Positions 23,811 to 45,954 of a stretch of DNA of 64,000 bases are shown in pieces. The DNA is taken from the NCBI RefSeq assembly GCF_000002075.1, contig NW_004797297.1, positions 1,661,323-1,725,322 of the forward strand. The letters are read 5' to 3'. The position numbers and the translations under genes are program-made. Numbering within the stretch: the first letter of the stretch is position 1; the number at the start of each line of letters is the position of its first letter. The notes under the pieces were generated by a model, which was given only the letters and a program-made list of their open reading frames with translations, was not told the origin of the DNA and did not search any database. This stretch comes from Aplysia californica. Its lineage: Eukaryota.

Positions 23811-24719
23811 ATGGCATACAATATTTTGTACGAGAGGGCTTCAAGTGAAGAAAAGGCTTTAGAATTTCTACTAAGAAATTTGTTAGCCTGGTCCACGCCT
23901 CCAGAAAGCCCTGATGTTCAGTGTGGAAAGTTGATGACTTTAGGGAAGACAGGCAGAGGAGAAGAAAGTTGTTTTTGTTGCCCTTCACATAAAGAACGTA
24001 AGGTATTTTTGTGTACAGACACATTTTGGGAGAACAGTCAGCTGTCATACAGAAACATTGTAGAGTTGTTATTTTTCTGGAGCTTCAAAGAACCCGTAGA
24101 TCATACGACATTACTCACTGGACTTTCCGAAAAAACTGTTGTCCAGTGGTTCGCTTATTTTAGATATGTTTGTTCGAGGCGGCTAGTTGAAAACAATTAT
24201 CAGATAGGTGGTCCAGGTCATGAAGTTGAAATAGATGAAACTTTAGAAGTCAGGAGAAAATACAACAAAGGGAGGGTAGTAGAACAGAGGTGGGTTTTTG
24301 GTGGGGTGGATAGGGCAACAAACAAAGGATTTTTTAAAATTGTTCCAGACAGAACTGCTGCAACTCTTTTAAACATTATCCAGAACCGCATTGCACCCGC
24401 TAACTCTATAATCCATAGTGATGACTTTGCTGCGTACAACAATATAGTTAATATTCCAGTGAACCCCCCCATATATGCGCATCTGACCGTAATTCATGAA
24501 CAGAATTTCGTTGACCTAGTGACAGTTGCATGCACTAACCGAGTTGAGGGTTATTGGAAAAACGTAAAAATAAGATTCAAGTGCATGCAAGGAGTACACA
24601 ACTCCAGGCTTGCCTCGCACTTGGATGAGTTCATGTGGCAAGAGCTGCACGGAAAAGACCCGACAAGTGCCTTCAACAACTTTATTGACCGCTGGTCTCA
24701 GTGGCATCCTGCACCATAG
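23811..24719 (+). CDS. Merlin/IS1595-family DDE transposase, 302 aa, open frame
   Basis: IGGPGHEVEIDET, RKYNKGR, WVFGGVDR, VPDRTAATL, IHSDD..AY, HLTVIH..NFVD, TNRVEGYW, HLDEFMW motifs; D-D-E triad present. Confidence 0.9.
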   Translation: MAYNILYERASSEEKALEFLLRNLLAWSTPPESPDVQCGKLMTLGKTGRGEESCFCCPSHKERKVFLCTDTFWENSQLSYRNIVELLFFWSFKEPVDHTTLLTGLSEKTVVQWFAYFRYVCSRRLVENNYQIGGPGHEVEIDETLEVRRKYNKGRVVEQRWVFGGVDRATNKGFFKIVPDRTAATLLNIIQNRIAPANSIIHSDDFAAYNNIVNIPVNPPIYAHLTVIHEQNFVDLVTVACTNRVEGYWKNVKIRFKCMQGVHNSRLASHLDEFMWQELHGKDPTSAFNNFIDRWSQWHPAP

Positions 24720-24963
24720 TGATAAGTTGATATATATGCCATTTAAATGTTGTTTTAAATATCTAGTCTAGCCTACTAATTCTATCTAAATAGCAGCACC
24801 ACCTTTTTTTTGGTAGTTTGGGTTTTGGCTCATTTTAGACTCAGCCAAACCGCCCTCCCCAAACCAAGATCTCACATGATTCGCCAAGTCTCGTTTCAAA
24901 TCGGTAAGCTATCCAATATGGCTGCCAAGTAAACTAAAGAGACGGGACCGCACTGGGTAAGTA

Positions 24964-26698: not shown

Positions 26699-27294
26699 TA
26701 GAGGTGTGCGAGTCCAGCATATTAAGATTCGAGTCCACACTCGAGTATCTGCTCTGGACTCGAGTAATTACTCGAGTAATTACTCGAGTCCCACGGCTCT
26801 AAAGACTCGAGTAATTACTCGAGTAATAGTATCCCAAAAGGGAATTTTAGTGGGTTTCAAAAAAAGTTTTGTTGAATATCGGACAGAAAATAGAGTGCCT
26901 TCCTTGGAGGGAGCTTGAGTAGGCTTATGGCAATTCTAGACACATGCTGTTTATACCTTATTTATTTTATTTTATCTTAGGAAGAGGCTATTCTCACCCC
27001 AGGTGAGAATAAAAATGTGATCGACCTCTCACCCCGGGTGAGACTTGCCAGCGTTGGCTATTCTCACCCGGTGTGAAACAAAACCGGTTTTTCCTAATTT
27101 CTGAATACTTCCTATCGGGGAGGATGATTAAATAGACAAACCCCTTCTTTAAAAAAATGATATTATAACACAAAAGTAAAACTAATTTGACGGTCTACAA
27201 AGATGCTACTGCTATTTCACTTTTAGAATAGAGCCGAACTACCCTAATCGGCATTTTGTTTTGCCCAGAAATTCTCGCAATATCTAGGCTACTC

Positions 27295-27341
<47 letters not shown>

Positions 27342-28025
27342 AATGCCCGCAGATAAAATTGCATGTTTTTAACACTAGAGAACTGGAACGTTTGTTTACA
27401 CCACAGAATTCAATTTTTTAAAAGTGTAGACCTAGAATTCTGTGGTTTACACTGGGTATCACGGTAAACGCACACCGGAAGAGAATAGCCAAAAGGCTCG
27501 CTCTCTCACTCCAGGTGAGTGAGAAGCTTACAACTGTATAACAACTAAGCTAGAATAGAGGTGGTCTTTATCTTATCTTTTCTTTTCTTTAAAAAAAAAA
27601 AAAAAAATTCTCTATTACAACAGTAAGAATAAAATGTACACGGATGGTAAACCTCAGACAGTGGACTTCATAAAGAAAAGAAGTTTGATTGGTCATCGTG
27701 GGTTTTTAACAGTGGTTTCCTTTTTGCTTTTTTCTGGGGGGGGGGTTCGTTTTTTTCCTTTGAGGGAAGGGATTTTTTTGTTTTTGTTGTTTCTTTTCCT
27801 TCAGTTTAAAAAATTGCTTATTAGAATGTTTCTTTTATCTATTCTTAACTTTAAAAAAAAACAAATTTTTCTCCTTTTTTCTGTTTTTTCCCCCTACAGA
27901 CTCGAGTCTGGACTCGAGTCCAGACTCGAGTCCTTACTCGAGTAATTTACTTGTGACTCGAGTCTGGACTCGCTGCATGTATTACTCGAGTACTCGAGTC
28001 TGGACTCGTTACTCGCACACCTCTA
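26699..28025. mobile_element. Non-autonomous hAT-type element in the SSR1 promoter
   Basis: Perfect 15-bp TIR TAGAGGTGTGCGAGT, perfect 8-bp TSD GTTATTCG (26691-26698, 28026-28033), multiple subterminal ACTCGAGT palindromes at both ends. Confidence 0.92.
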
Positions 28026-34200: not shown

Positions 34201-37200
34201 AATTTACTTCAGGTAATGTGGGTAACACTTACTGTTATATTTGTTTAATCACTAATTTTATGTTCTGGTTGAATTCTTTATTGTTGTGCACTTCGGGGCT
34301 TTTAGAATAATGAACTAATGCAAATTATTGTTAGTAATGAACTATTGTTATGTTGAAATCTGTGCACATCAAAGTTGAAATTGTTTTTGAAAAATCTTTT
34401 CCTTTTCCATCCAGGAGGGCACCATTTTCCAGAATGCTGTTTTCAATGAGACGATCCAAGTTATTGAACCGGATGAGGGATTGGATGGGGAAACGTGAGT
34501 GTTTAATTCAATACCGTTTTAGTGTAAAGTATTGCTGTTTTCCCACTTGATGTGACCTACAAATCCTGGCATGATCGCTACAAACTCTGAAACAGGGCAT
34601 GGGCTCATCCCATTTGTCTCTCCATTCCTTTTAATGTGTATTTTATGTGATGATGGACAATGGTCTTAAACACTGAATAAAAACAACTGCATTATTCAGG
34701 GGGCGGTGGCATATCGACGAAAAAATAAACCAATTCCGAGTTACAACTGAAGTGGGGGGGGGGGGGGATATTTTTGTTAGCGCAGAAAGACTTGAGGCTT
34801 TGCAGCTGTATGGTATAGTACTGTGTAATTTATTGATTTCATTTTTATTTTGCAGGTAGATAAATGGTTGGTTGCATTTTCATAATGCCAACCAACAACT
34901 CTTACTTGCAACATTAATATTGGATGCTAGTTTGACCCGTGTTTGTATGCTGTACAAATACAGGATAAATGTCATCCCACATACAATTTATGTAGTGTTT
35001 TTATAGCATTTAAAATTTAAATAAGTACAGTTGAACCTATTAAGTTGGAAGTTTGGACCCTGTGATGGTGGAATTTTCCCCTTCACGCCTTGATAAATTC
35101 CTAACAAATCTAAGACGGAAACCTTTTCTACCCGCAAATGGGCAAAGAAATTCTTTCCCTTCTGGGGGTTTTGACCTGTCGCAGGCAACAATACTTTGTC
35201 CGCTCAGCCCTGATTCAAAAGAAAAGTCCCAACTAAGATTAATTCAGCTGGCTCTCTATGACATGGCTGCCTGGAAAGGAACAGGGGAAGAGATGCGGAC
35301 TGTGAGTAGCTGTTGTTCCACCCATATGAGCCCTGAGCGATGCAGGTGGTCATGGTAGTTTAGATGTGAAAACTGACTGCTGCTTGTCTTCAAGGTGCGC
35401 TGGCACTGAAACTTTCCCGATAGCCAGAGGTATGAAATTTGACCTTTGTTTGCCACCCTGAGCATATGGCCAATGGCCAGCCTAGGACAAAGTTCTTTGA
35501 AGTATTGTTACTTGTACACACTAGTCATGGCTTTCTACCTTTTTTATTAGAGCTCGTTATATATGATTAAAAGACTTGTGGCTTTTGTTATAATTGATTT
35601 TATCGGGGAGTTATAGCGCAGCAAACAGAGGAGGGGTGGCATTAGTGGAATGTGTTTTATTACATCCGTGATTGGGGCAAAACATGGGAGCAAAGGATAT
35701 ATTAACACCAGGTCTGGAAAAAGTCTGGAATTTTGAGATAGGTCAGGAAAAAGTCGGGAATTTTGTGATGGGTCGGTAAGTCGGGAAAGGATAGGGCCTG
35801 CGTAATGTGTAGCTATCTAGACTGTATGGCTGATGAATCCTGAAGAGGAAACATAATTGAACCGCTATGGCGGAAGTGTATGTGTGACACCGAGGCTCGA
35901 TCAGGAAGAATCAAGATCTGCTTTCGTTACCACCCAGAAATTTTCCGGTAATAGTCTGATAGATAACGCAAAATTTGTAACATGCAGGTTGTGCATTACG
36001 AACGCTTTGTCGCCTTGAAAATAAATCAATATTAAAAGTTTGTCCTCTGCTGTCACTTGTGGAAAAAAAAAAGAAAAGAAAGTTATACAAGCGTTTTGTC
36101 AGGTTCGCCCTTGTGACTGGTCAATGAACCTGTGAGTACCGGCGGTCTGAGCGCTGTGAAGTATAGGACTCCGGAATTGGNNNNNNNNNNNNNNNNNNNN
36201 NNNNNNNNNNNNNNNNNNNNNNNNNNNNNNNNNNNNNNNNNNNNNNNNNNNNNNNNNNNNNNNNNNNNNNNNNNNNNNNNTTGAAGACTACGTTAGAGGT
36301 CAAAAACTGAACTTTGAAGCAAATTTTTAGTATATTTAGAATTTTGATAACTACTATAAGAGCTCTCGGCAAAGCACGCGTTGGTGCAGGCCTTGTGTGG
36401 AATCGGGATCCGTCATGCCTTGTTATTGAACTAAAGTGTTCGCGTTTCATTGGATGGGGTGACTGTATTTATATCTACATCTATATTTTAGCTTTCTGTT
36501 CAAGATTGGCAGAATTTCAGTGTCACTGCATCTTGCCCTCCCTCAGTTCTTACACCTCTCACACTGAATAGATCTACTTGAGCCATTCAAGTTATTACTA
36601 TTACTCTACTTTGAGTTTGAGCAATAGTTTTCGTCTTCACGTTTATTATATGAATCATGACACCCAGACTGGTTATTGACAGTCGATATTCTGGTTCTAG
36701 GTATTTTCTCAGGCTCAAAGCAGGATTCCTTTTTTATATAGGGCCTATAGTTTATGTAGGCTAATATGATGAGGGGGAAATATAAATACATGTAAGTAAG
36801 AACAGACTGAAATGCCAAAGTCACTCAAGATCCCAGTGCCACACTGACATGTCGACTGGATATAATGTACCTACATGTTTGTGTGTATATGTGTTCACGA
36901 ACATATACATATATATTATATCTGATATAAATGGAGCATGCGCTGCCATTATGTAACACGCCCCTGGAAAATGGAGGGCGCGTCCCGTCCCCCCCCGGGA
37001 AATTTGAGAAGCTGGGTAGCAGTCACCCAGTATTTTAATCATCTGTTGTTTGAATGAAGACTACTACAAAATGTACATTTGCATTCATTTTAAGACATTT
37101 TGACTTTTTATCATTGATGATGGCCTTTTTGGGGGATCATTCTTGATGCGCAGCAGCCTGATTTTTCTCTCAAATTGGGGTCTTGAAAAAATTTCCAAGA

Positions 37201-40200
37201 TTTGGTGGGGACCCTGTATTAAGTCCTTTGCTTTTAATCAGTTAAAAAGTGGTCCTTTGGACCCTCCCCTTAAAAATTCCCCTGTGCAAGACATAATTTT
37301 TTTCTGTCTCCCTTGTGATTCTTTTTTTTTAGACAGGTTCACTCATGATACTGCTGGACATGACATATTTATGTCTTAACTTTTTTGTTTCAGATTTTTC
37401 CTGTACGTGTTCCTGGCTGCCATTATCATTTTACTTCTTGTTGGCGCTCAGCAGTTGGTTGCTAGCTTTGGTGTAAGTATTCCTGTCCTATTTCAGCATT
37501 CAAGAGTTTATGGGTGATGTTCTGTAGGTTTTTCAACTTGTGGAGAGCTTTGCTTGTGCAGTATTATTATGTAGGGTCTAATCTTACTTTTTCATGCTCA
37601 AAATGTATATCTGTATCAAAGTATAGTCTTTGGGTTATCACAATTCCTCAGAATGTGGCTTACTGTTGACTTATTGAATAACACAGGTTATATAGATTTT
37701 ATGCCACTGTTTCATGAGGGACCTTGTCTCATTCTCTTGTACTATCCCAGGATATATCTGTTTGACATATGTCAGAAATGGGTTGGGTTTTTTTCTTGTA
37801 ATCAGCATGGTTATAAGAAATGCAAGGAAACAGCGGGTGATGCATTGCTGTATGCTACTACCCTCCTGAGGGCTTGCTAGAGAAACTTTGGAGTGCTAGA
37901 GCATGACTTGGACTATGTTTCAAGTTGTGTGTAGAACACTCTGTACATACACCGAGAAAAGAGATAGCCGATGCTTGTATATTACAGACCTGCCAACCAC
38001 TCCATGGCCAAAAATAATTTTTCTCTAAAAATCGGGGAGATGCTCTAGAACTCGAGAAGATTGATATTGTGTTACTAACCTGTTGTGGCAAATGTGTGTG
38101 TGCCGGGAAAGGTACCGGTTAATGCATTTACCCAAACTGTAGTACACGGCAATAAAAGATCAATTTTTACCAAATTTGAGTTCCATTAAAAAGGGGGCTC
38201 TAGCTTTATTGGAGTTCTTGGTAGGTTTGACATACTGTATTCAGCTCACTATTGAAAACAACAACACTGTTTTACATTCTGTATTTGTTTTCATTTTCAA
38301 GTGCTGTGACAATGTTGCCATGTTCATTTGTGTAAGATTATAATACAAATGCTGTGAGTCGGGATAAACAGTCCACACACTATTGCGCCGTGAAGGGTTT
38401 TGGGGGTTTTTTTTAGTTAGAAAGTATGCCTTGTATTCTACATTTCAAGACTGGCTTTGACTTATCATTCCCATTTGCTGTAATCTTCTGACACCTTGAA
38501 CTGTTTTTTAAGTTGTGCATGCAACATAATTTAGAGCTATTCAACTAATAAGCCAGAAGCATTTAAACAGGGAGTTTGTCACCTGTGAATGGTTTTCATT
38601 AGAGTGCAGTCCAGATATTTTTACCTGTTCCGGTGGCATCTTGACTTCTTTTTGACATTCAAAGTAACAATTCAGAGCCTTTTAGACACTTTCATCTTTG
38701 AATAGTTACTCTCTTTGGGCAAAAAGCCCTCATCCAAACCGCAGAGTAATTGAAATGGGGCTTTGATTTGTTTCTTGTTTTGTTTTGATTGTGGGTGTTT
38801 TTGTTGTTTTTGCCCTCCCCCAACTGAGATTTTCCTTTACGAAAGAGGGATGCTGAATGACATCTATTTCATCTTGCAAGGAAACAGCGGGTGATGCATT
38901 GCTGTATGCTTCTACCCTCCTGAGGGCTTGCTAGAGAAACTTCGGAGTGCTAGAGCATGACTTGGACTATGTTTCAAGTTGTGTGTAGAACACTCTGTAC
39001 ATGGAGAGGAAAAAAGGGTTACTCATAGGGGGCGGGGAGGGGTCTGTCCACTTTTATTAAGCCGGGGTAGAGCGGTTTCAAAATTTTACAACTAGCATTA
39101 AGGTTTTGCATGGAACATTCAACCTTTTTTTAAAATAAAAAGTGCAGTCGAACCTGTCCAAAATTAACACACACACACACACACCCCTTTTTTATTTTTT
39201 ATTTTATTTGGGGGGGGGGGGGTGAAAAAAGTCTGAGACAATTGTCCTTATATTTCTGAAAGAAACGCTAGTGGGAGGGGGACTATCCTGTGAGCTTTCA
39301 TATATAAAAGACTTCGTTTTCAAATAACATTAGATGTACCACCATCTGAAGCGTCTGTGGTGTGGCGTGTTTTTATGGTTGCTTTTTAAATTGTTAATGG
39401 CGGTTTGTTTGTTGTTTGATTGGTTGTTTTTTTTATGTTCAAATAAGACCTGCCTTTGATTTAAAATGTGGGAACTATTATTCGTTACCCATGCAAGGAA
39501 ACAGCGGGTGATGCATTGCTGTATGTTTCTACCCTCCTGAGGGCTTGCTAGAGCATGACTTGGACTATGTTTCAAGTTGTGTGTAGAACACTTTGTACAT
39601 GGATAGAGAAAAAAAATTTTACTCTTTGGGGACAGGGAGGGGTCTTTCCACTTGTAATAAACCAGGGTGGAGTGGTTTCAAAATTTTGCAGTTAACATTA
39701 AGGTTTGGCATGAAAAATGCAATCTCTTTTGAAATAACAAAGTACAGTCGAACCTGTCCAAGATTACCGCCCATGTTGATGAAAAAAATGGTCTGCTTAG
39801 ACGACAGTGTCCTTATATTTCTAAGAGAAATGTTAGGGGGAAGTGGACAATCTTGTGATGTTTCATATAAAAGACTTCGTTTTCACATAACATTGGATGT
39901 ACCTCCATCATGAAGTGTCTATAGCATGTTTTAATTGTCGTTTTTGTTAATGATGGCTTGTATGTTGGGTTTTTTAATGTTCAAATAAGACTTACCTTTG
40001 ATTAAAAGTGTGGGAACTATTGTCCATTAGCCATGCAAGGAAACAGCGGGTGATGCATTGCTGTATGCTTCTACCCTCCTGAGGGCTTGCTAAAGAAACT
40101 TCGGAGTGCTAGAGCATGACTTGGACTATGTTTCAAGTTGTGTGTAGAACACTCTGTACATGGAGAGAGTAAAAAACAAACAGTTTACCCTTTGGGGGCG

Positions 40201-43200
40201 GGGAGGGGTCTGTCCACTTTTAATAAGCCAGGGTAGAATTGTTTCAAAATTTTTCAGCTAGCATTTGACACTTTGCGGTCATCTTGTGATATTTCATATA
40301 AAAGACTTCATTTTCACATAACATTGGTTGTACCACCATCATGAAGTCTATGGCATTTTGTAATAGTAGTTTTTGTTATTGGATGTTTGTATGTTGTTTG
40401 TTTGTGTAGGTACCACAAACTGAAATTTCAAAGTCCTCTGATTTCATAGTTAACTACACTACCTTATAGAATTTATCATTCTGAGCATTTTGATACCAAA
40501 TTTATACATATAGCTTCATTTTTAACAAAGTTATGAACATCTGAAGTGGCAGAAAAATGTTAGTTTTTTAATTGCGAAATGTCTACACTTTGAGATGTCA
40601 CAACATTCTTAAATTTGAACGGACATTCACAAAAACTTGTAGACACACACCTATGAACATAGAAAACAAGCTCAATTTTTTTCAGGGCTATCAAATAACC
40701 AGAAGATGGAAATTTATAGACGTAAACATGGCTTTTTGACCAAAACGGCAAGAAATACAAGGGGAGATTAAAATCCCCACTCACGACCGCCGGCTTATCG
40801 GCTGCGCGCTGAAGGGAAGAAGAGAGACTTTATACGAAAAGGGGCGATGGTGCCCTGCTTGCAAGCCGACGGGGAGCGTCCGGTGTTTATTTGCGTATAA
40901 TGGCTGTGTTATTCTTGAAGAGGAATGAATGGGCTTTCTGCCGGTATATTTTCGTAGTCAGTCCGATCACTGGTTCCATAAAAAAAACAACACCGAAAGT
41001 TTTCACACGCAAATCTCTTCTATTAATTCTCAAAGAACAGTCTTTAGAAATATATCACCGGAAAGAGCGTCTTCTTATCTTGAAATATCGACGAATCAGA
41101 TTGCAGTATTTAATACCATACGCTCCCCGTTCCTGTTCAACCGAGGTCACTCGAAAAATCAATAGACGAAACGCGCTGCCGCGACAGTGAAAACCTCGAT
41201 AGTGTTGTCTTTTTTCCCGCAAGATTTTGCTTTCAAAAGAATCGTTGATCAAATAAATATTACCACTAAAAAGTGGAAAAGCTCCTCTTTCTTCTGATAT
41301 ATCAAGTGTCTGTGTGTATGCATGATCACACAGTGTTTTAGGAGGGTAAAAATGTGGGTTTTGGTCTCTGTGACAGTGCGCCACGGGGGCGCACGGCCAG
41401 TTTGCGGTACCTAGTTTGTGTTGTTTTTTTGTTTATGTTCAAATTAAGACCTGCCTTTGATTAAAAATGTGGGAACTATTATTCGTTAGCCATGCAAGGA
41501 AACAGCGGGTGATGCATTGCTGTATGCTTCTACCCTCCTGAGGGCTTGCAAAAGAAACTTTGGAGTGCTAGAGCATGACTTGGACTATGTTTCAAGTTGT
41601 GTGTAGAACACTCTGTACATGGAGAGAGAGGGGGGAAAAGTTTACTCTTTGAGGGCGGGGAGGGGTCTGTCCGCTTTTAATAAGCCAGGGTAGAGTGGTT
41701 TCAAAATTTTAGTTAGCATTAAGGTTTTGCATGGAACATTCAATCTCTTTTTAAATAACAAAGTACAGTCCAACCTGTCGAAGATTACCGCCCATGTTGA
41801 AAAAAATCTGCTTGGACAACAGTGTCCTTATATTTCTAAAAGAAGCGCTAGTTGGAGGGGGACTATCATGTGAGCTTTCATATAAAAGACTTCGTTTTTA
41901 CTAAACATTGGATGTACCACCATCATGAATCGTCAGTGGCACGTTTTAATTGTAGTTTTTGTTATTGGTGGTTTGTATGTTGTTGTTGTTTTGTTTTTTG
42001 TTAATGTTCAAATAAGACCTGCCTTTGATTAAAAGTGTGGGAACCATTGAATTCGTTATCCATGCAAGGAAACAGCGGGTGATGCATTGCTGTATGCTCT
42101 ACCCTCCTGAGGGCTTGCAAAAGAAACTTCGGAGTGCTAGAGCATGACTTGGACTATGTTTCAAGTTGTGTGTAGAACACTCTGTACATATGCAGAGAAA
42201 AGAGAGATAGCTGATGCTTGTTTAATTCAGCTTACCCCATGATCCCTTTGTCATATCAATTCTGTCTTTATTTAACAGCGAAAACGTCTTTCGAAGCCCC
42301 GCCAGCCGGTTGAAATGGGAACACAAAATTCTGATGTGGACTATGACTGGTTGCCAAAGGAGACTCTTCAGGGTCTTAGTAAGTTTTTTTGAATTATTAT
42401 ACTTCAGTCGTTTAGTTTATGTGGGTTTTGGTTGGGGGGGGGGGGGGGTTGAAATATGGCGCTGTGTAGTACAGTGGAATCCTGTTTTAACGAGAGGGTG
42501 GGAACTGGTACGAAATGTCCGTTATAGCAGGTTTCTCTTTATGAGGGATCCAGTAAGAATTTAAAAGGAAATAATAAAGTATGAGTTTGGTGTTCTGTTG
42601 CTGTTTTTTATTATCTCCCCTGATGATGGTTTTGTTCAACATGAAATCTAGGTCTTTCTTGATCAAAAATTGAATCAGGTTTCTTTCTCTAGCGTTAAAA
42701 CGATGTTGACAGCTCGGCTTTGGTGATCAGAAAGAAAGTTCTCAAGGCTGACTTGCCCGCTGTATTTTCTCCCACCCCACCACACCCTGTGGTGCGTTCC
42801 CGCATCTGCTTGCGCACATCACACATTCGCTCCATCCATCACAGCACTGTGACCTCTCCATCCCCGCATCAGAGAAGTGAGAGGCATGATAGGCCTAGAT
42901 AATCTAGACTAGGCTGGCCTATCACAATGCGTTCTGCTTCTCTACTACAGCTCTTCTGCGCATGCAACACCCTCCCCACTCATTCGCTCCGGCTTTCATC
43001 GTTGGCACACATGGGCTCTCCCATTCTTTATTTTGCTTGATCACCAAGTGTCTCAGCTGGCGAGATTTTACATATGTAGAAATGACCTATACGCTGTGCA
43101 TGGCAACAGGAATATTCCGCTATAACCGACTCGCGCGTTTATCTGATTGAGCTATAGCAGTATTTTATTTACAAAGATGAAGAAGGGGGGGAAAATAGAC

Positions 43201-44886
43201 TTCTCGTTATTTCAGAACTCGTTATAAGTGGACTCCACTGTACCAACGTGTACTGGGCCTGGTTGAAAACACATGTATTTTTTAGAAAGGAATATTGATC
43301 GAACCAGACTATTTCAATGGGTTGATTTACATTTTTTCACTAACTTTGTTTTCCTTAACTCACTTCAGGCGGTTCACACAACAGTTGCGTTACCCCCGCC
43401 GCGACGCTCGCGACGGGTCTCACAAGCCCTGCGTGACCAACTTTGGAATTTTTTTTCCGCTCTACAAATCACGCACGGATCGCGAGACCCGCCTCGTACC
43501 CTTGTTTGGCCAAGCCTGAACTACTTAGACTTCGTTTCATATCTCTGGGGCCGGTAGTTTTTAAGTTATTGAAGGTGAAGGACAGTGACCCCCAACTGGG
43601 GTTGAACAGACCGGAACTCGCGCTTTGTTTTTTCTATGCAGCTGATAGTAATCCGACAATCGCGTTGTAGTAACGGTCGAAGACGTCGCATGAACAAGAA
43701 TCACATAATTTCACCGTTTTCTATACTTCTGTACGTTTTACTAGTTCTAGTATCTCAGAATAGGATGTGTCTAATAGTTAGGATCCTGGATATGTACCCG
43801 AACACGGCCCGAGTCGTAGTTCTAGGGCTAGATCTAGCACTAGTACCAGTGTTGTTTTTCGCGCAACGAGATCACAACGTCGTGCTGTACATCTGTCTCA
43901 TGTAATTCAGTGTATGGGTCTGAATCAATGCACAGACCAACTTTTATATTTTCGCCAAACACTCGCACATGGATACAAATCAAACCAGAACACTTTGAAC
44001 TTTTATTTTTGTTGTTGTAGTGAATTTCATTCTACTTGTCACGTCTGGAAATTTTTCGGAAAATCAAATTCATGCCAATTTTTTAAAAATCATAGAAATT
44101 AAAGTATTAGACTTAGACAATTATAGTTTTTTTGTATTAGATTAAGCTTGAATGTTACTTTACTGTGTCAAAAAATAATTACAATAGGGTAATTCTGAGA
44201 GTTGTGGTGATTTATTGAAATACCCCCAAAAACGCCAGTCTTCAACGCTTGTGACTGGTGAAAGGGCCCAGTCGCAAGTGAAAGAGTATGGAATGTAGAG
44301 AGTTGGGTGATTCGGTTCTGTTGCTACTGTTTTGTTTTTGTTTTTATTCTCAAGATGCATCTCATATGTTGCAAAGGAGGTTCAAGATTAGTAAAAACAT
44401 GTTTTAGTTTATTAACCAGAGCTTCCAGTCTTCCGCAAATGGAAAAATTTTGTGAACATTCGTGTTAAAAAAAATATATAAAATTATTTTTTAAAATGCG
44501 AAATAAAAAATTTCCGTAATTACTGATAGTCAACAAAATAGCCAACCCATATCGGAAGTGCTCTTTTATTTGCAAGTGTAGACGGTTCTTTTACGGGGTC
44601 TTTTACTTTCACTTTCTTAACTTTCTAAAGCACAAACAGCACCAGCACTGTAAACAAGAGGAAGACATAACGATTGTGGTTCAATAGATATTTGGGCCTG
44701 CCACGAAAAGAAAACTCTGAAGAGAGCTTGATTTTTTCATCAGACTTGTTTATTTGTACATATTGTTGTGGATTTAAGTTGAATATAAACTGTCAAGCTG
44801 TTTAGATCTAGATTCTAGCTGTTATACTATTACTGTTAGATATAAATCTATAATAAGGATTCTACACATTAGATCTAGAATCTAGA

Positions 44887-44923
<37 letters not shown>

Positions 44924-45954
44924 ATATAATATGGTGCAAACCAACACATGCAGAAAAAAGGTTGAACATTAACTGTCAAGTTTTATAGATCTAGCTGTTA
45001 CACTAACTGTTGTGGATGTACAGTATCAGTACAAGGGAGAAAGCATGGCTTTGAATTTATATGGATTAACACTACAGAAAATTGTGTATGCAAGGTATGT
45101 TTTTTCTTCTCTTATTTTCTTGTAAAATTTAGGCTTGAATAGCCAAAAATGACACTCTGTGGGCGTCCCCCTTCTACCCCCTGCCAGGGCGCTGCCCTGC
45201 ACCCGAAAACCTCGAACAATGATATCAGCTGCTGGAAGCTCTGATTAACTGTAAACAAAGACATTAATTGCTGTTCGTCTATTATTTTTTTCTCTTTTCC
45301 TCAAGAGATTAGCATTTTAGCATTAAGTTTGGAAACTGTTGTTTGTTTTGCCATGCAAGGAAACAGCGGGTGATGCATTGCTGTATGCTTCTACCCTCCT
45401 GAGGGCTTGCAAGAGAAACTTTGGAGTGCTAGAGCATGACTTGGACTATGTTTCAAGTTGTGTGTAGAACACTCTGTACATGAGATTGTAGGAGAAAAGC
45501 CATTGATCGTTTTATGAAATGTTTGAAAGATAACAATTTTTTACTGAGAAAGAATAGTGGACATAAAAGAGTTGACGAGGGTCTGCAATTATGTGTGCCC
45601 TTCAAGCCAGTTATTCTGTGAATTCACAAATGATGTACTTGGTAATGTTGCACTCAAAATACTTTTTTTGATAGCGCTGATATATCAGGCTCTTATGTGA
45701 GTAGTGGTCTGGGTTTTTGTTGGGACTGTATTGTGTGCATTGATCAGCTGTGGATGAACTTGGCTGTTGATGTAGATTTTTTTTTTCTTCACCAACAGTC
45801 GGTTTCCTTGAGCGATCAAATTTGACATTTCAAGACGTCTTTGAATATATCTGTTTCTTTTGTTTTCCCCACAGACAAGTCTCCCCGCAGATCACCGAAG
45901 CAATCACCAAGACAAAGGCGTAACCTCCGATCGACAGGGTCTGGAGAGGATTGA
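28144..45954 (+). CDS. SSR1: Translocon-associated protein subunit alpha (TRAP-alpha / signal sequence receptor 1), 9 coding exons, 300 aa
   Basis: Manually spliced exons 28144-28219, 29830-29957, 32137-32236, 32780-32907, 34033-34164, 34415-34494, 37394-37472, 42279-42378, 45875-45954; all introns GT-AG, phases consistent, total 903 nt. Product has signal peptide ([17 protein letters not shown]), acidic N-terminus, [80 protein letters not shown] (TM), [17 protein letters not shown] and basic tail SPR..R.TGS, all characteristic of TRAP-alpha. Confidence 0.97.
28612..29256. mobile_element. MITE with ~85-bp terminal inverted repeats (SSR1 intron 1)
   Basis: CAGACCCGGTAGGGGAACTCTTTTGTGATTTCGGA at ~28655-28689 mirrored at ~29181-29215, extending to both ends. 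Confidence 0.75.
29830..29957 (+). CDS. SSR1: SSR1 exon 2 (acidic region)
   Basis: tttctcag acceptor; [42 protein letters not shown]; donor AAG|GTACT (in-frame alternative donor 12 nt upstream possible). Confidence 0.88.
32137..32236 (+). CDS. SSR1: SSR1 exon 3
   Basis: [33 protein letters not shown]; acceptor ttttacaag, donor GTAAG. Confidence 0.92.
32780..32907 (+). CDS. SSR1: SSR1 exon 4
   Basis: [43 protein letters not shown]; canonical splice sites. Confidence 0.96.
34033..34164 (+). CDS. SSR1: SSR1 exon 5
   Basis: [44 protein letters not shown]; canonical splice sites. Confidence 0.96.
34415..34494 (+). CDS. SSR1: SSR1 exon 6
   Basis: [27 protein letters not shown]; donor GTGAGT. 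Confidence 0.95.
37394..37472 (+). CDS. SSR1: SSR1 exon 7 (transmembrane helix)
   Basis: [26 protein letters not shown]; donor GTAAGT. Confidence 0.95.
37821..37950 (+). ncRNA. Box H/ACA snoRNA copy 1 (SSR1 intron 7)
   Basis: Hairpin GCAAG..CTTGC, H box AGAGAA (37879-37884), hairpin GGAGTG..CACTCT, ACA (37945-37947)+3 nt; both pockets complementary to conserved LSU rRNA sites at 14-15 nt from the boxes. Confidence 0.88.
38875..39004 (+). ncRNA. Box H/ACA snoRNA copy 2 (SSR1 intron 7)
   Basis: Near-identical to copy 1; intact H (AGAGAA) and ACA boxes and pockets. Confidence 0.88.
39492..39602 (+). ncRNA. Box H/ACA snoRNA copy 3, 19-nt internal deletion (variant or pseudogene)
   Basis: Same sequence but lacks GAAACTTYGGAGTGCTAGA between two TGCTAGAG direct repeats; the 3' hairpin loses its lower stem. 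Confidence 0.7.
40034..40163 (+). ncRNA. Box H/ACA snoRNA copy 4 (SSR1 intron 7)
   Basis: Intact; H box AAAGAA. Confidence 0.88.
40408..41412. mobile_element. Unclassified TIR DNA transposon inserted in snoRNA array between copies 4 and 5
   Basis: Termini AGGTACCACAAACTG / CAGTTTGCGGTACCT; flanking GTTTGTGT duplicated; spacer sequence resumes on both sides. Confidence 0.75.
41493..41622 (+). ncRNA. Box H/ACA snoRNA copy 5 (SSR1 intron 7)
   Basis: Intact; H box AAAGAA. Confidence 0.88.
42063..42191 (+). ncRNA. Box H/ACA snoRNA copy 6 (SSR1 intron 7, 87 nt before exon 8)
   Basis: Intact boxes and pockets; 1-nt deletion in upper part of 5' hairpin. Confidence 0.88.
42279..42378 (+). CDS. SSR1: SSR1 exon 8
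   Basis: [33 protein letters not shown]; donor GTAAGT. Confidence 0.94.
42472..43240. mobile_element. Tc1/mariner-type MITE (SSR1 intron 8); partial second copy at ~57510-57900
   Basis: TA-CAGTGGAATCC ... GGACTCCACTG-TA; internal 42866-43230 homologous to 57512-57900. Confidence 0.75.
44417..45243. mobile_element. hAT-like non-autonomous element with 6-bp target duplication
   Basis: 12-bp TIR CAGAGCTTCCAG / CTGGAAGCTCTG; ATTAAC on both sides. Confidence 0.65.
45354..45483 (+). ncRNA. Box H/ACA snoRNA copy 7 (SSR1 intron 8)
   Basis: Intact; H box AGAGAA, ACA at 45478-45480; flanks unrelated to the intron-7 tandem unit. Confidence 0.88.
45875..45954 (+). CDS. SSR1: SSR1 exon 9 (last coding exon)
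   Basis: [26 protein letters not shown]-stop (TGA 45952-45954); pyrimidine-rich acceptor ccccacag. Confidence 0.92.

Follow-up and report, generated by a model that had tools for sequence, protein, structure and literature searches.

Seven intronic copies of a predicted box H/ACA RNA in SSR1 of Aplysia californica: a probable SNORA9 homologue with candidate targets U1183 and U2678 of 28S rRNA

The segment at 37821-37950 of a 64,000-nucleotide (nt) stretch of the Aplysia californica genome (assembly GCF_000002075.1, contig NW_004797297.1, positions 1,661,323 to 1,725,322 of the forward strand; hereafter the window) raises the question of which small nucleolar RNA (snoRNA) it encodes, which uridines of the ribosomal RNA (rRNA) this RNA would guide, and how two such guide pockets came to stand in one molecule. 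A preliminary description had read the segment as a box H/ACA snoRNA that joins two large-subunit guide hairpins in a lineage-specific manner. The analysis presented here indicates that the segment is probably one of seven copies, all in introns of the gene SSR1, of a box H/ACA snoRNA that is a divergent homologue of SNORA9 and is predicted to guide U1183 of the 28S rRNA with its 5' pocket and U2678 with its 3' pocket.

Structure of the RNA and its pairing with 28S rRNA

The predicted fold of copy 1 follows the order hairpin, hinge, hairpin and tail, with a free energy of -40.7 kcal/mol, or -33.1 kcal/mol with the pockets and boxes forced open. The features of the H/ACA class, that is, an H box (ANANNA) in the hinge and an ACA past the second hairpin, are present and are retained in six of the seven copies, and the bipartite pockets leave a U-N unpaired at 15 and 14 nt from their boxes, where the range of the class is 14-16 nt. 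The preliminary description had placed the pockets, the H box and the ACA correctly and had given both spacings as they were found on re-check (Table 1). The 3' end of copy 1 was set by the class rule (ACA plus 3 nt), not by observation.

The pockets were scored against 1,221 uridines of the 18S, 5.8S and 28S rRNA of this genome, the 28S being taken from locus L020:4051-7794. The 5' pocket ranked U1183 first among the 1,221, with 9+4 Watson-Crick pairs and a score of 35 (runner-up 18), and the 3' pocket likewise ranked U2678 first, with 5+6 Watson-Crick pairs, one G-U pair and a score of 28 (runner-up 17), so that the earlier assignment of both pockets to 28S holds when they are aligned to the animal's own rRNA. 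The 28S also contains both target sequences, as had been expected: the search of ribosomal DNA (rDNA) with the two patterns gave eight matches for the first target and six for the second, with none for the reversed controls, and the letters of the target sites are constant in every rDNA stretch examined that spans them. By site equivalence, both targets are uridines that are modified in other species.

Differential strength was observed for the two pockets when they were compared with shuffled sequences. When the fold set the register and only Watson-Crick pairs counted, shuffles equalled the 5' pocket in 0 of 5,000 cases and the 3' pocket in 4 of 5,000; with 1 nt of slack in the register, 1 and 15 of 1,666 shuffles were as good, and with the fixed register and G-U scoring 1 and 68 of 5,000. 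Under 44 free registers the counts rose to 73 of 3,000 for the 5' pocket and 1,119 of 3,000 for the 3' pocket, with 29 of 3,000 for both jointly. Chance fails to explain the match of the 5' pocket under any of these nulls, while the assignment of the 3' pocket depends on the fold and on its landing at a known modified site.

The equivalence of these sites to human and yeast positions was established through published tables, pocket letters and spacing landmarks, not through direct alignment of human or yeast rRNA. Yeast positions 960, 966, 1042, 1052 and 1056 (PMC5699541, Table 1) fall on positions 1177, 1183, 1260, 1270 and 1274 here with one base of slack, and U1183 corresponds by pocket letters and spacing to human U1670, Xenopus U1334, chicken 1618 and yeast 966 (snR43). 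Human U1670 and U1769 are the targets listed for SNORA9 (PMC6984369, supplement), and in the chicken table the counterpart of its 5' pocket is snR43 and that of its 3' pocket snR33 (PMC2653536); the published site tables thus support what had been proposed for the first site, namely human U1670 with SNORA9 and yeast 966 with snR43. For the second site, a yeast T1 fragment (PMC5062969) is letter for letter the same as the Aplysia sequence and places U2678 at U2345 of that study. U2345 in this numbering, that of Taoka, is U2347 in the usual one, a base that is mostly 2'-O-methyluridine (Um) made by snR65 and partly pseudouridine made by snR9 (PMC5062969, PMC5699541). Human 3851, the partner of yeast 2347 in a published alignment, becomes 3830 in the older numbering once the table offset of 21 is applied (PMC11014333, supplement), and SNORA62 is the guide assigned to human U3830 and U3832 (PMC6466398). 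On this sequence correspondence U2678 is human U3830 and yeast U2347. The human half of the earlier proposal for this site (U3830, SNORA62/E2) is retained, whereas its yeast half (Psi2349, snR82) lies two bases off the actual U2347 with snR65 and snR9.

Relation to SNORA9 and origin of the 3' pocket

No Rfam family matched anywhere in the window at the gathering threshold. At lower scores, the alignment of copy 1 with SNORA9 (RF00411) spans model positions 1-133 at 48 bits (E-value 2.6e-7; cut-off 85), and full-length alignments of 45.8-50.8 bits (E 5.2e-8 to 9.3e-7) were obtained in six of the seven copies. Searching each half separately, a check that the preliminary description had proposed, returned SNORA9 for the 5' half (28.5 bits, E 9.2e-5) and, for the 3' half, SCARNA13 at chance level (E 0.59) with no SNORA9; the full length scores about 20 bits above the 5' half alone. 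Counted by eye and leaving aside the upper stem and the boxes, the SNORA9 consensus is matched in 20 of 32 columns of the 3' hairpin and 21 of 31 of the 5' hairpin. The SNORA62/SNORA6 model (RF00091) gave no match at copy 1, either with the full length or with the 3' half. The alignments point to an RNA that is likely a divergent SNORA9 homologue. The earlier suggestion that it is probably not a one-to-one orthologue of a catalogued family was overstated in view of an alignment that covers all 133 positions of SNORA9, for which the genome search gave no SNORA9-like locus other than this one.

The 3' pocket is where this RNA departs from SNORA9. The pairing sites of U1260, the equivalent of human U1769, and of U2678 agree at 7 of 11 positions, and three core positions differ between the consensus pocket and the present one. 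The two halves of the duplex of the 3' pocket are predicted at -3.4 and -8.2 kcal/mol with U2678 as against -1.7 and +0.7 kcal/mol with the SNORA9-type site. That the same pocket also guides U1260 was considered and rejected, its score there being 13 with 4+2 pairs as against 28 for U2678. The 3' hairpin is moderately favoured as SNORA9's own, its pocket having changed target through about three substitutions, and such drift fits the sequences slightly better than a swap of hairpins. The alternative is that the 5' hairpin of SNORA9 was joined to an unrelated 3' hairpin which already guided U2678, so that the function would be the same and only the origin would differ. It would explain why the 3' half alone has no SNORA9 match and why its upper stem has nothing in common with the consensus at the sequence level; the upper stem of the 5' hairpin is, however, equally diverged, and the length of the 3' hairpin, its lower-stem letters and the flanks of its pocket do align to SNORA9, with the gain of about 20 bits for the full length. 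A neighbouring RNA at 34850 has a 3' pocket that suits the usual 3' target of SNORA9 with 7+3 pairs, but this RNA has no SNORA9 match at E-values up to 10. The shuffling of half-snoRNAs has been postulated (PMC6984369), while the vertebrate guide for U3830 lies in a 5' hairpin according to the chicken table (PMC2653536) and not in a 3' hairpin. Taken with this evidence, a swap appears rather unlikely. The preliminary description's lineage-specific pairing of two hairpins survives in part: this target pair was not found described in the papers and tables consulted, and the swap that it implies is not established.

An 8-nt direct repeat is present within copy 1 (37875-37882 and 37894-37901), and through it the 5' strand of the 3' pocket matches the base of hairpin 1 together with the start of the H box. 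Speculatively, the copy of the repeat at 37875-37882 might have served as a template for the new pocket strand.

A second SNORA9 locus with a pocket of the vertebrate type was sought in the genome, and the search gave five matches among 42 candidates scored, all of them in this cluster, by which absence is unproven. A pattern scan of metagenomes for homologues gave 19 loci, none of which (0/19) has an H box and a second hairpin, and these were treated as chance.

Several observations weigh against the reading of a SNORA9 homologue with two working pockets. All seven copies (35.4-50.8 bits) lie below the SNORA9 cut-off of 85; the 3' half alone gives no SNORA9 match at E-values up to 10, so that the relation of the 3' hairpin to SNORA9 lacks independent support; and the alike targets at U1260 and U2678 inflate the match of this hairpin to SNORA9. 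No second invertebrate homologue was found from which the direction of the pocket change could be read. The match of the 3' pocket is beyond chance only with the register fixed by the fold and does not beat the free-register null, which was judged too loose for testing this pocket and beside which the stricter fixed-register null is given. The stability of the fold is modest (z -1.5, with 14 of 200 shuffles equally stable), and both pockets are partly closed in the predicted fold. Among the near-identical copies two-sided covariation was found in 0 of 40 pairs, and gene conversion could account for part of the identity of the cores. Expression and rRNA modification are predicted only, and Deryusheva et al. 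(PMC6984369) warn that guide activity is not readable from sequence alone. The missing Rfam match at the cut-off and the modest folding score could even be taken to indicate no RNA gene, only a local repeat with a fortuitous likeness to an H/ACA RNA. This is highly improbable: E-values against SNORA9 reach 5e-8, both pockets rank a known rRNA site first, conservation has sharp borders, and the copies lie on the sense strand in introns of a housekeeping gene.

Copies, host introns and neighbouring features

The search of the animal's own genome at the DNA level gave seven copies, every one of them inside the window (Table 1). The six intact cores are 97-99% identical as against 41-83% for their 100-nt flanks, with four variable positions among them, none in the pockets or the invariant box letters, one of which changes a U-G to a C-G pair in the 3' lower stem. 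The pocket letters are unchanged across all seven copies. In copy 3 the deletion removes the hinge and the 5' strand of the 3' lower stem, leaving an H-box-like motif, and the 3' pocket of this copy is likely dead. Copies 2-6 lie within duplicated units of several hundred bases that are 75-95% identical, whereas the flanks of copies 1 and 7 are mostly at background identity, yet their cores are alike. The spacers between the copies are tiled by contigs from other sequencing runs, so that the array is no artefact of assembly. Between copies 4 and 5 lies a high-copy repeat of about 1,026 nt (40399-41424), bypassed in contigs of three of four runs; it is a polymorphic insertion within the cluster.

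Table 1. Coordinates of the predicted snoRNA, its copies, the host exons and introns, and other candidate guides (positions in the window unless a locus is given)
Feature	Position	Strand	Remarks
Box H/ACA snoRNA gene, copy 1 (predicted)	37821..37950	+	SNORA9 alignment 48 bits, E 2.6e-7; fold
5' pocket, 5' strand CAGC	37831..37834	+	pairs downstream of 28S U1183
5' pocket, 3' strand TCCTGAGGG	37864..37872	+	9 pairs upstream of U1183; H box 15 nt away
H box AGAGAA	37879..37884	+	AAAGAA in copies 4, 5 and 6; variation confined to N position
3' pocket, 5' strand	37894..37900	+	6 Watson-Crick pairs and 1 G-U downstream of U2678; GCTAGA = 37895-37900
3' pocket, 3' strand GTAGA	37931..37935	+	5 pairs upstream of U2678; ACA 14 nt away
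ACA box	37945..37947	+	
Copy 2, intact	38875..39004	+	98% identity to copy 1; SNORA9 50.8 bits
Copy 3, damaged	39492..39602	+	SNORA9 35.4 bits; 19 nt deleted between 8-nt direct repeats; 2 private substitutions
Copy 4, intact	40034..40163	+	
Copy 5, intact	41493..41622	+	
Copy 6, intact	42063..42191	+	1-nt deletion at bulge; ACA about 91 nt 5' of 3' splice site
Copy 7, intact	45354..45483	+	sole copy in next SSR1 intron
SSR1 (TRAP-alpha) exon 5' of cluster	37394..37472	+	hydrophobic segment; contig joints
SSR1 intron with copies 1-6	37473..42278	+	4,806 nt, GT..AG; joint 37472-42279 in contigs of 3/4 runs
SSR1 exon between snoRNA-bearing introns	42279..42378	+	PF03896, E 0.016
SSR1 intron with copy 7	42379..45874	+	3,496 nt, GT..AG; X20 contig joint 42378-45875
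SSR1 last coding exon, up to stop codon	45875..45954	+	
H/ACA-like RNA, single copy	34850..34984	+	preceding SSR1 intron; U109 27.1 bits, E 0.97
Box C/D copies L052-L056	G000:C28:1657492-1660634	-	aimed at U2678
Box C/D copy L057	G000:C248:208784		aimed at U2678

The host gene was identified as SSR1 by Pfam PF03896 on two of the five exon pieces submitted and by a match of one exon to mammalian TRAP-alpha (E 1e-13, with 27 of 41 identities counted by eye), and it lies on the same strand as the snoRNA copies. Contigs carry the spliced joints 34494-37394, 37472-42279 and 42378-45875, all GT..AG, and none of them contains a splice joint inside the 4,806-nt intron, although rare internal exons could escape contigs. 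Six copies therefore lie between 37472 and 42279, that is, more than one snoRNA per spliced intron. Assembled contigs cannot reveal a mature snoRNA, and three poly(A) read sets had depth 0 over the SSR1 exon bins and were uninformative.

Intronic H/ACA RNAs are released from the intron and trimmed by exonucleases to their mature ends, and they assemble with dyskerin, NOP10, NHP2 and GAR1, after which the unpaired uridine is isomerised. The present RNA would be released from the spliced SSR1 introns in this manner, its 5' pocket guiding pseudouridylation of U1183, the usual SNORA9 target, and its 3' pocket that of U2678, which in vertebrates is assigned to SNORA62. With six copies in one intron, either a cut between the copies would be needed or each lariat would yield one RNA. 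In another explanation of the array most copies are silent, one RNA per intron being made (from copy 6 or another, and from copy 7) and the rest being recent tandem duplicates homogenised by conversion. Animals mostly have one snoRNA per intron (PMC11028025), copies 2-6 do lie in the duplicated units described, and copy 3 is broken; on the other hand the cores are far more alike than the flanks, copies 1 and 7 included, intronic H/ACA clusters have been described in Drosophila (PMC3089462), and the C/D guides for U2678 described below are amplified too. Silence of most copies is, on this evidence, unlikely.

Upstream of SSR1 an open stretch at 24100-24720 has by eye the look of a transposase remnant. 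Clusters of short palindromic repeats with an XhoI-like hexamer core were also observed at 26740-26830 and 27895-28020, flanking the region upstream of the SSR1 start, and are perhaps the ends of a mobile element.

U2678 as a candidate target of two guide classes

The genome also holds candidate box C/D guides for U2678. A guide pattern built for this base gave six loci genome-wide and none for the reversed control, where by our own estimate about two chance matches are expected for 15 letters in a genome of this size; a like-built pattern for another uridine (U1259) gave no locus. A C box and a terminal stem are found in all six copies, as is an unchanging guide with 11 Watson-Crick pairs in which the fifth base before box D falls on U2678; the other guide region varies. 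No Rfam family matched them at E-values up to 1 in the three of six loci scanned. U2678 is thus, on pairing, a predicted target of H/ACA and C/D guides in one genome.

The state of the equivalent base in yeast is known in detail: U2347 is 9% U, 74% Um, 4% pseudouridine and 13% both, with the two reactions competing, and loss of the pseudouridine has no effect on growth (PMC5062969). Published maps show Um at this base for yeast, tomato and tobacco but not for human or Arabidopsis (PMC11542601, Table 2), and a table in PMC11014333 gives it for yeast only among fly, human, yeast, Arabidopsis, frog and Dictyostelium. No animal guide for Um at the equivalent of U2678 was found in the literature searched. 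Since six C/D guides aim at this base too, in the manner of snR65 beside snR9 in yeast, U2678 would be a mixture of Um, pseudouridine and both. It could also be argued that only the 5' pocket is functional, U2678 being methylated by the C/D guides and the 3' pocket being outcompeted or incidental. The six C/D copies with their 11 Watson-Crick pairs would fit such a state, as would the yeast site with 74% Um and 17% pseudouridine or both (PMC5062969), and the 3' pocket is weak under the free-register null. It is nevertheless invariant in all seven copies and ranks U2678 first among 1,221 uridines at 14 nt from the ACA, a pseudouridine guide has been assigned to its human counterpart, and in yeast 13% of the base is doubly modified, so that a functional 5' pocket alone is quite unlikely. 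A dual guide remains the preferred reading. In this reading U1183 is very probably modified, and U2678 is modified by this RNA with good probability and would be shared with the C/D guides, as in yeast.

Two RNAs of the SNORA62/SNORA6 family are present elsewhere in the genome (L049:1501-1650 and L050:1501-1647, with 58.8 and 57.9 bits at a cut-off of 80). In both, the 3' pocket pairs best with U2680 and U2682, which correspond to the two snR82 sites of yeast (2349/2351), and the snR82-type role that had been proposed for the SSR1 RNA would fall to them instead. For their 5' pocket U2678 is not among the top six scan hits, and a redundant SNORA62 guide for U2678 was on this ground rejected. 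Within these hits the role of a guide for U2678 is left vacant. Near one of them a SNORD43-like box C/D RNA was observed (L049:2984-3048, 42.2 bits, cut-off 45). The 3' pocket of the single-copy RNA at 34850, spaced 14 nt from its ACA, can form 7+3 Watson-Crick pairs at U1260; 17 of 5,000 shuffles were as good by Watson-Crick count and 535 of 5,000 by score. This RNA may weakly be proposed to guide U1260, the vertebrate 3' target of SNORA9. For its 5' pocket no good rRNA target was found in the scan of the animal's uridines. Together these RNAs suggest a tentative and somewhat doubtful picture of a three-way guide exchange, in which two amplified families of guides, one H/ACA with six intact retargeted SNORA9 copies and one C/D with six, converge on U2678 near the peptidyl-transferase region, this base being mixed or doubly modified, while the displaced target U1260 has passed to the neighbouring SSR1 RNA.

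Compared with vertebrate SNORA9 (ACA9; RF00411), the SSR1 RNA has the same length, the same two-hairpin fold, lower-stem and H-box letters in common and a 5' pocket of the U1670 type, but the vertebrate 3' pocket is for U1769 and not for the U3830 equivalent, and the Rfam cut-off is not reached here. The host here is protein-coding SSR1 with seven copies, where one SNORA9 copy is listed for human and three for Xenopus. Vertebrate SNORA62 (E2; RF00091) shares the U3830 equivalent as a target, together with U3832, yet it has no sequence match to this RNA and guides U3830 from its 5' hairpin (chicken table, PMC2653536). Yeast snR9 and snR65 at U2347 (PMC5062969) likewise bring an H/ACA and a C/D guide to one uridine in an identical rRNA context; that case is measured and the present one predicted, no Rfam match to snR9 or snR65 was found here, and the copies here number seven and six. 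Among other yeast guides, snR43 (966) has the first target in common with this RNA, snR33 (1042) acts at the vertebrate 3' target of SNORA9 and not at that of this RNA, and the sites of snR82 (2349, 2351) lie 2 and 4 nt downstream of its second target. The Drosophila intronic H/ACA clusters (PMC3089462) hold several RNAs per intron, whereas here there are six near-identical copies of one RNA. An RNA with this target pair was not found in the literature, in a search that did not include the main Drosophila and nematode H/ACA catalogues and two supplementary files of PMC4914119, so that an invertebrate precedent is possible; PMC13228274, PMC1821038 and one PMC4914119 supplement gave nothing further for comparison.

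The double-guide mode of this RNA is the ordinary one of the H/ACA class, whose working principle is unchanged by the finding, and changes of guide of this sort are published and common: in a comparison of frog with human only 39% of H/ACA RNAs have kept orthologous targets, and shuffling is described as not rare (PMC6984369), recombination and separation of guide functions are reported in chicken (PMC2653536), and target switches of snoRNAs are reported in fungi (PMC5824354). What the SSR1 RNA would add is a clean case in which a conserved rRNA modification switches its guide, and, with only three core positions between the old and the new target, a short path for such a switch as an alternative to the swap of a whole hairpin. 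If U2678 carries Um and pseudouridine, an animal would share the competition seen at yeast U2347, and the site could be misread when pseudouridines are mapped by standard methods. The six copies in one intron would likewise bear on how animals other than insects process intronic snoRNA clusters.

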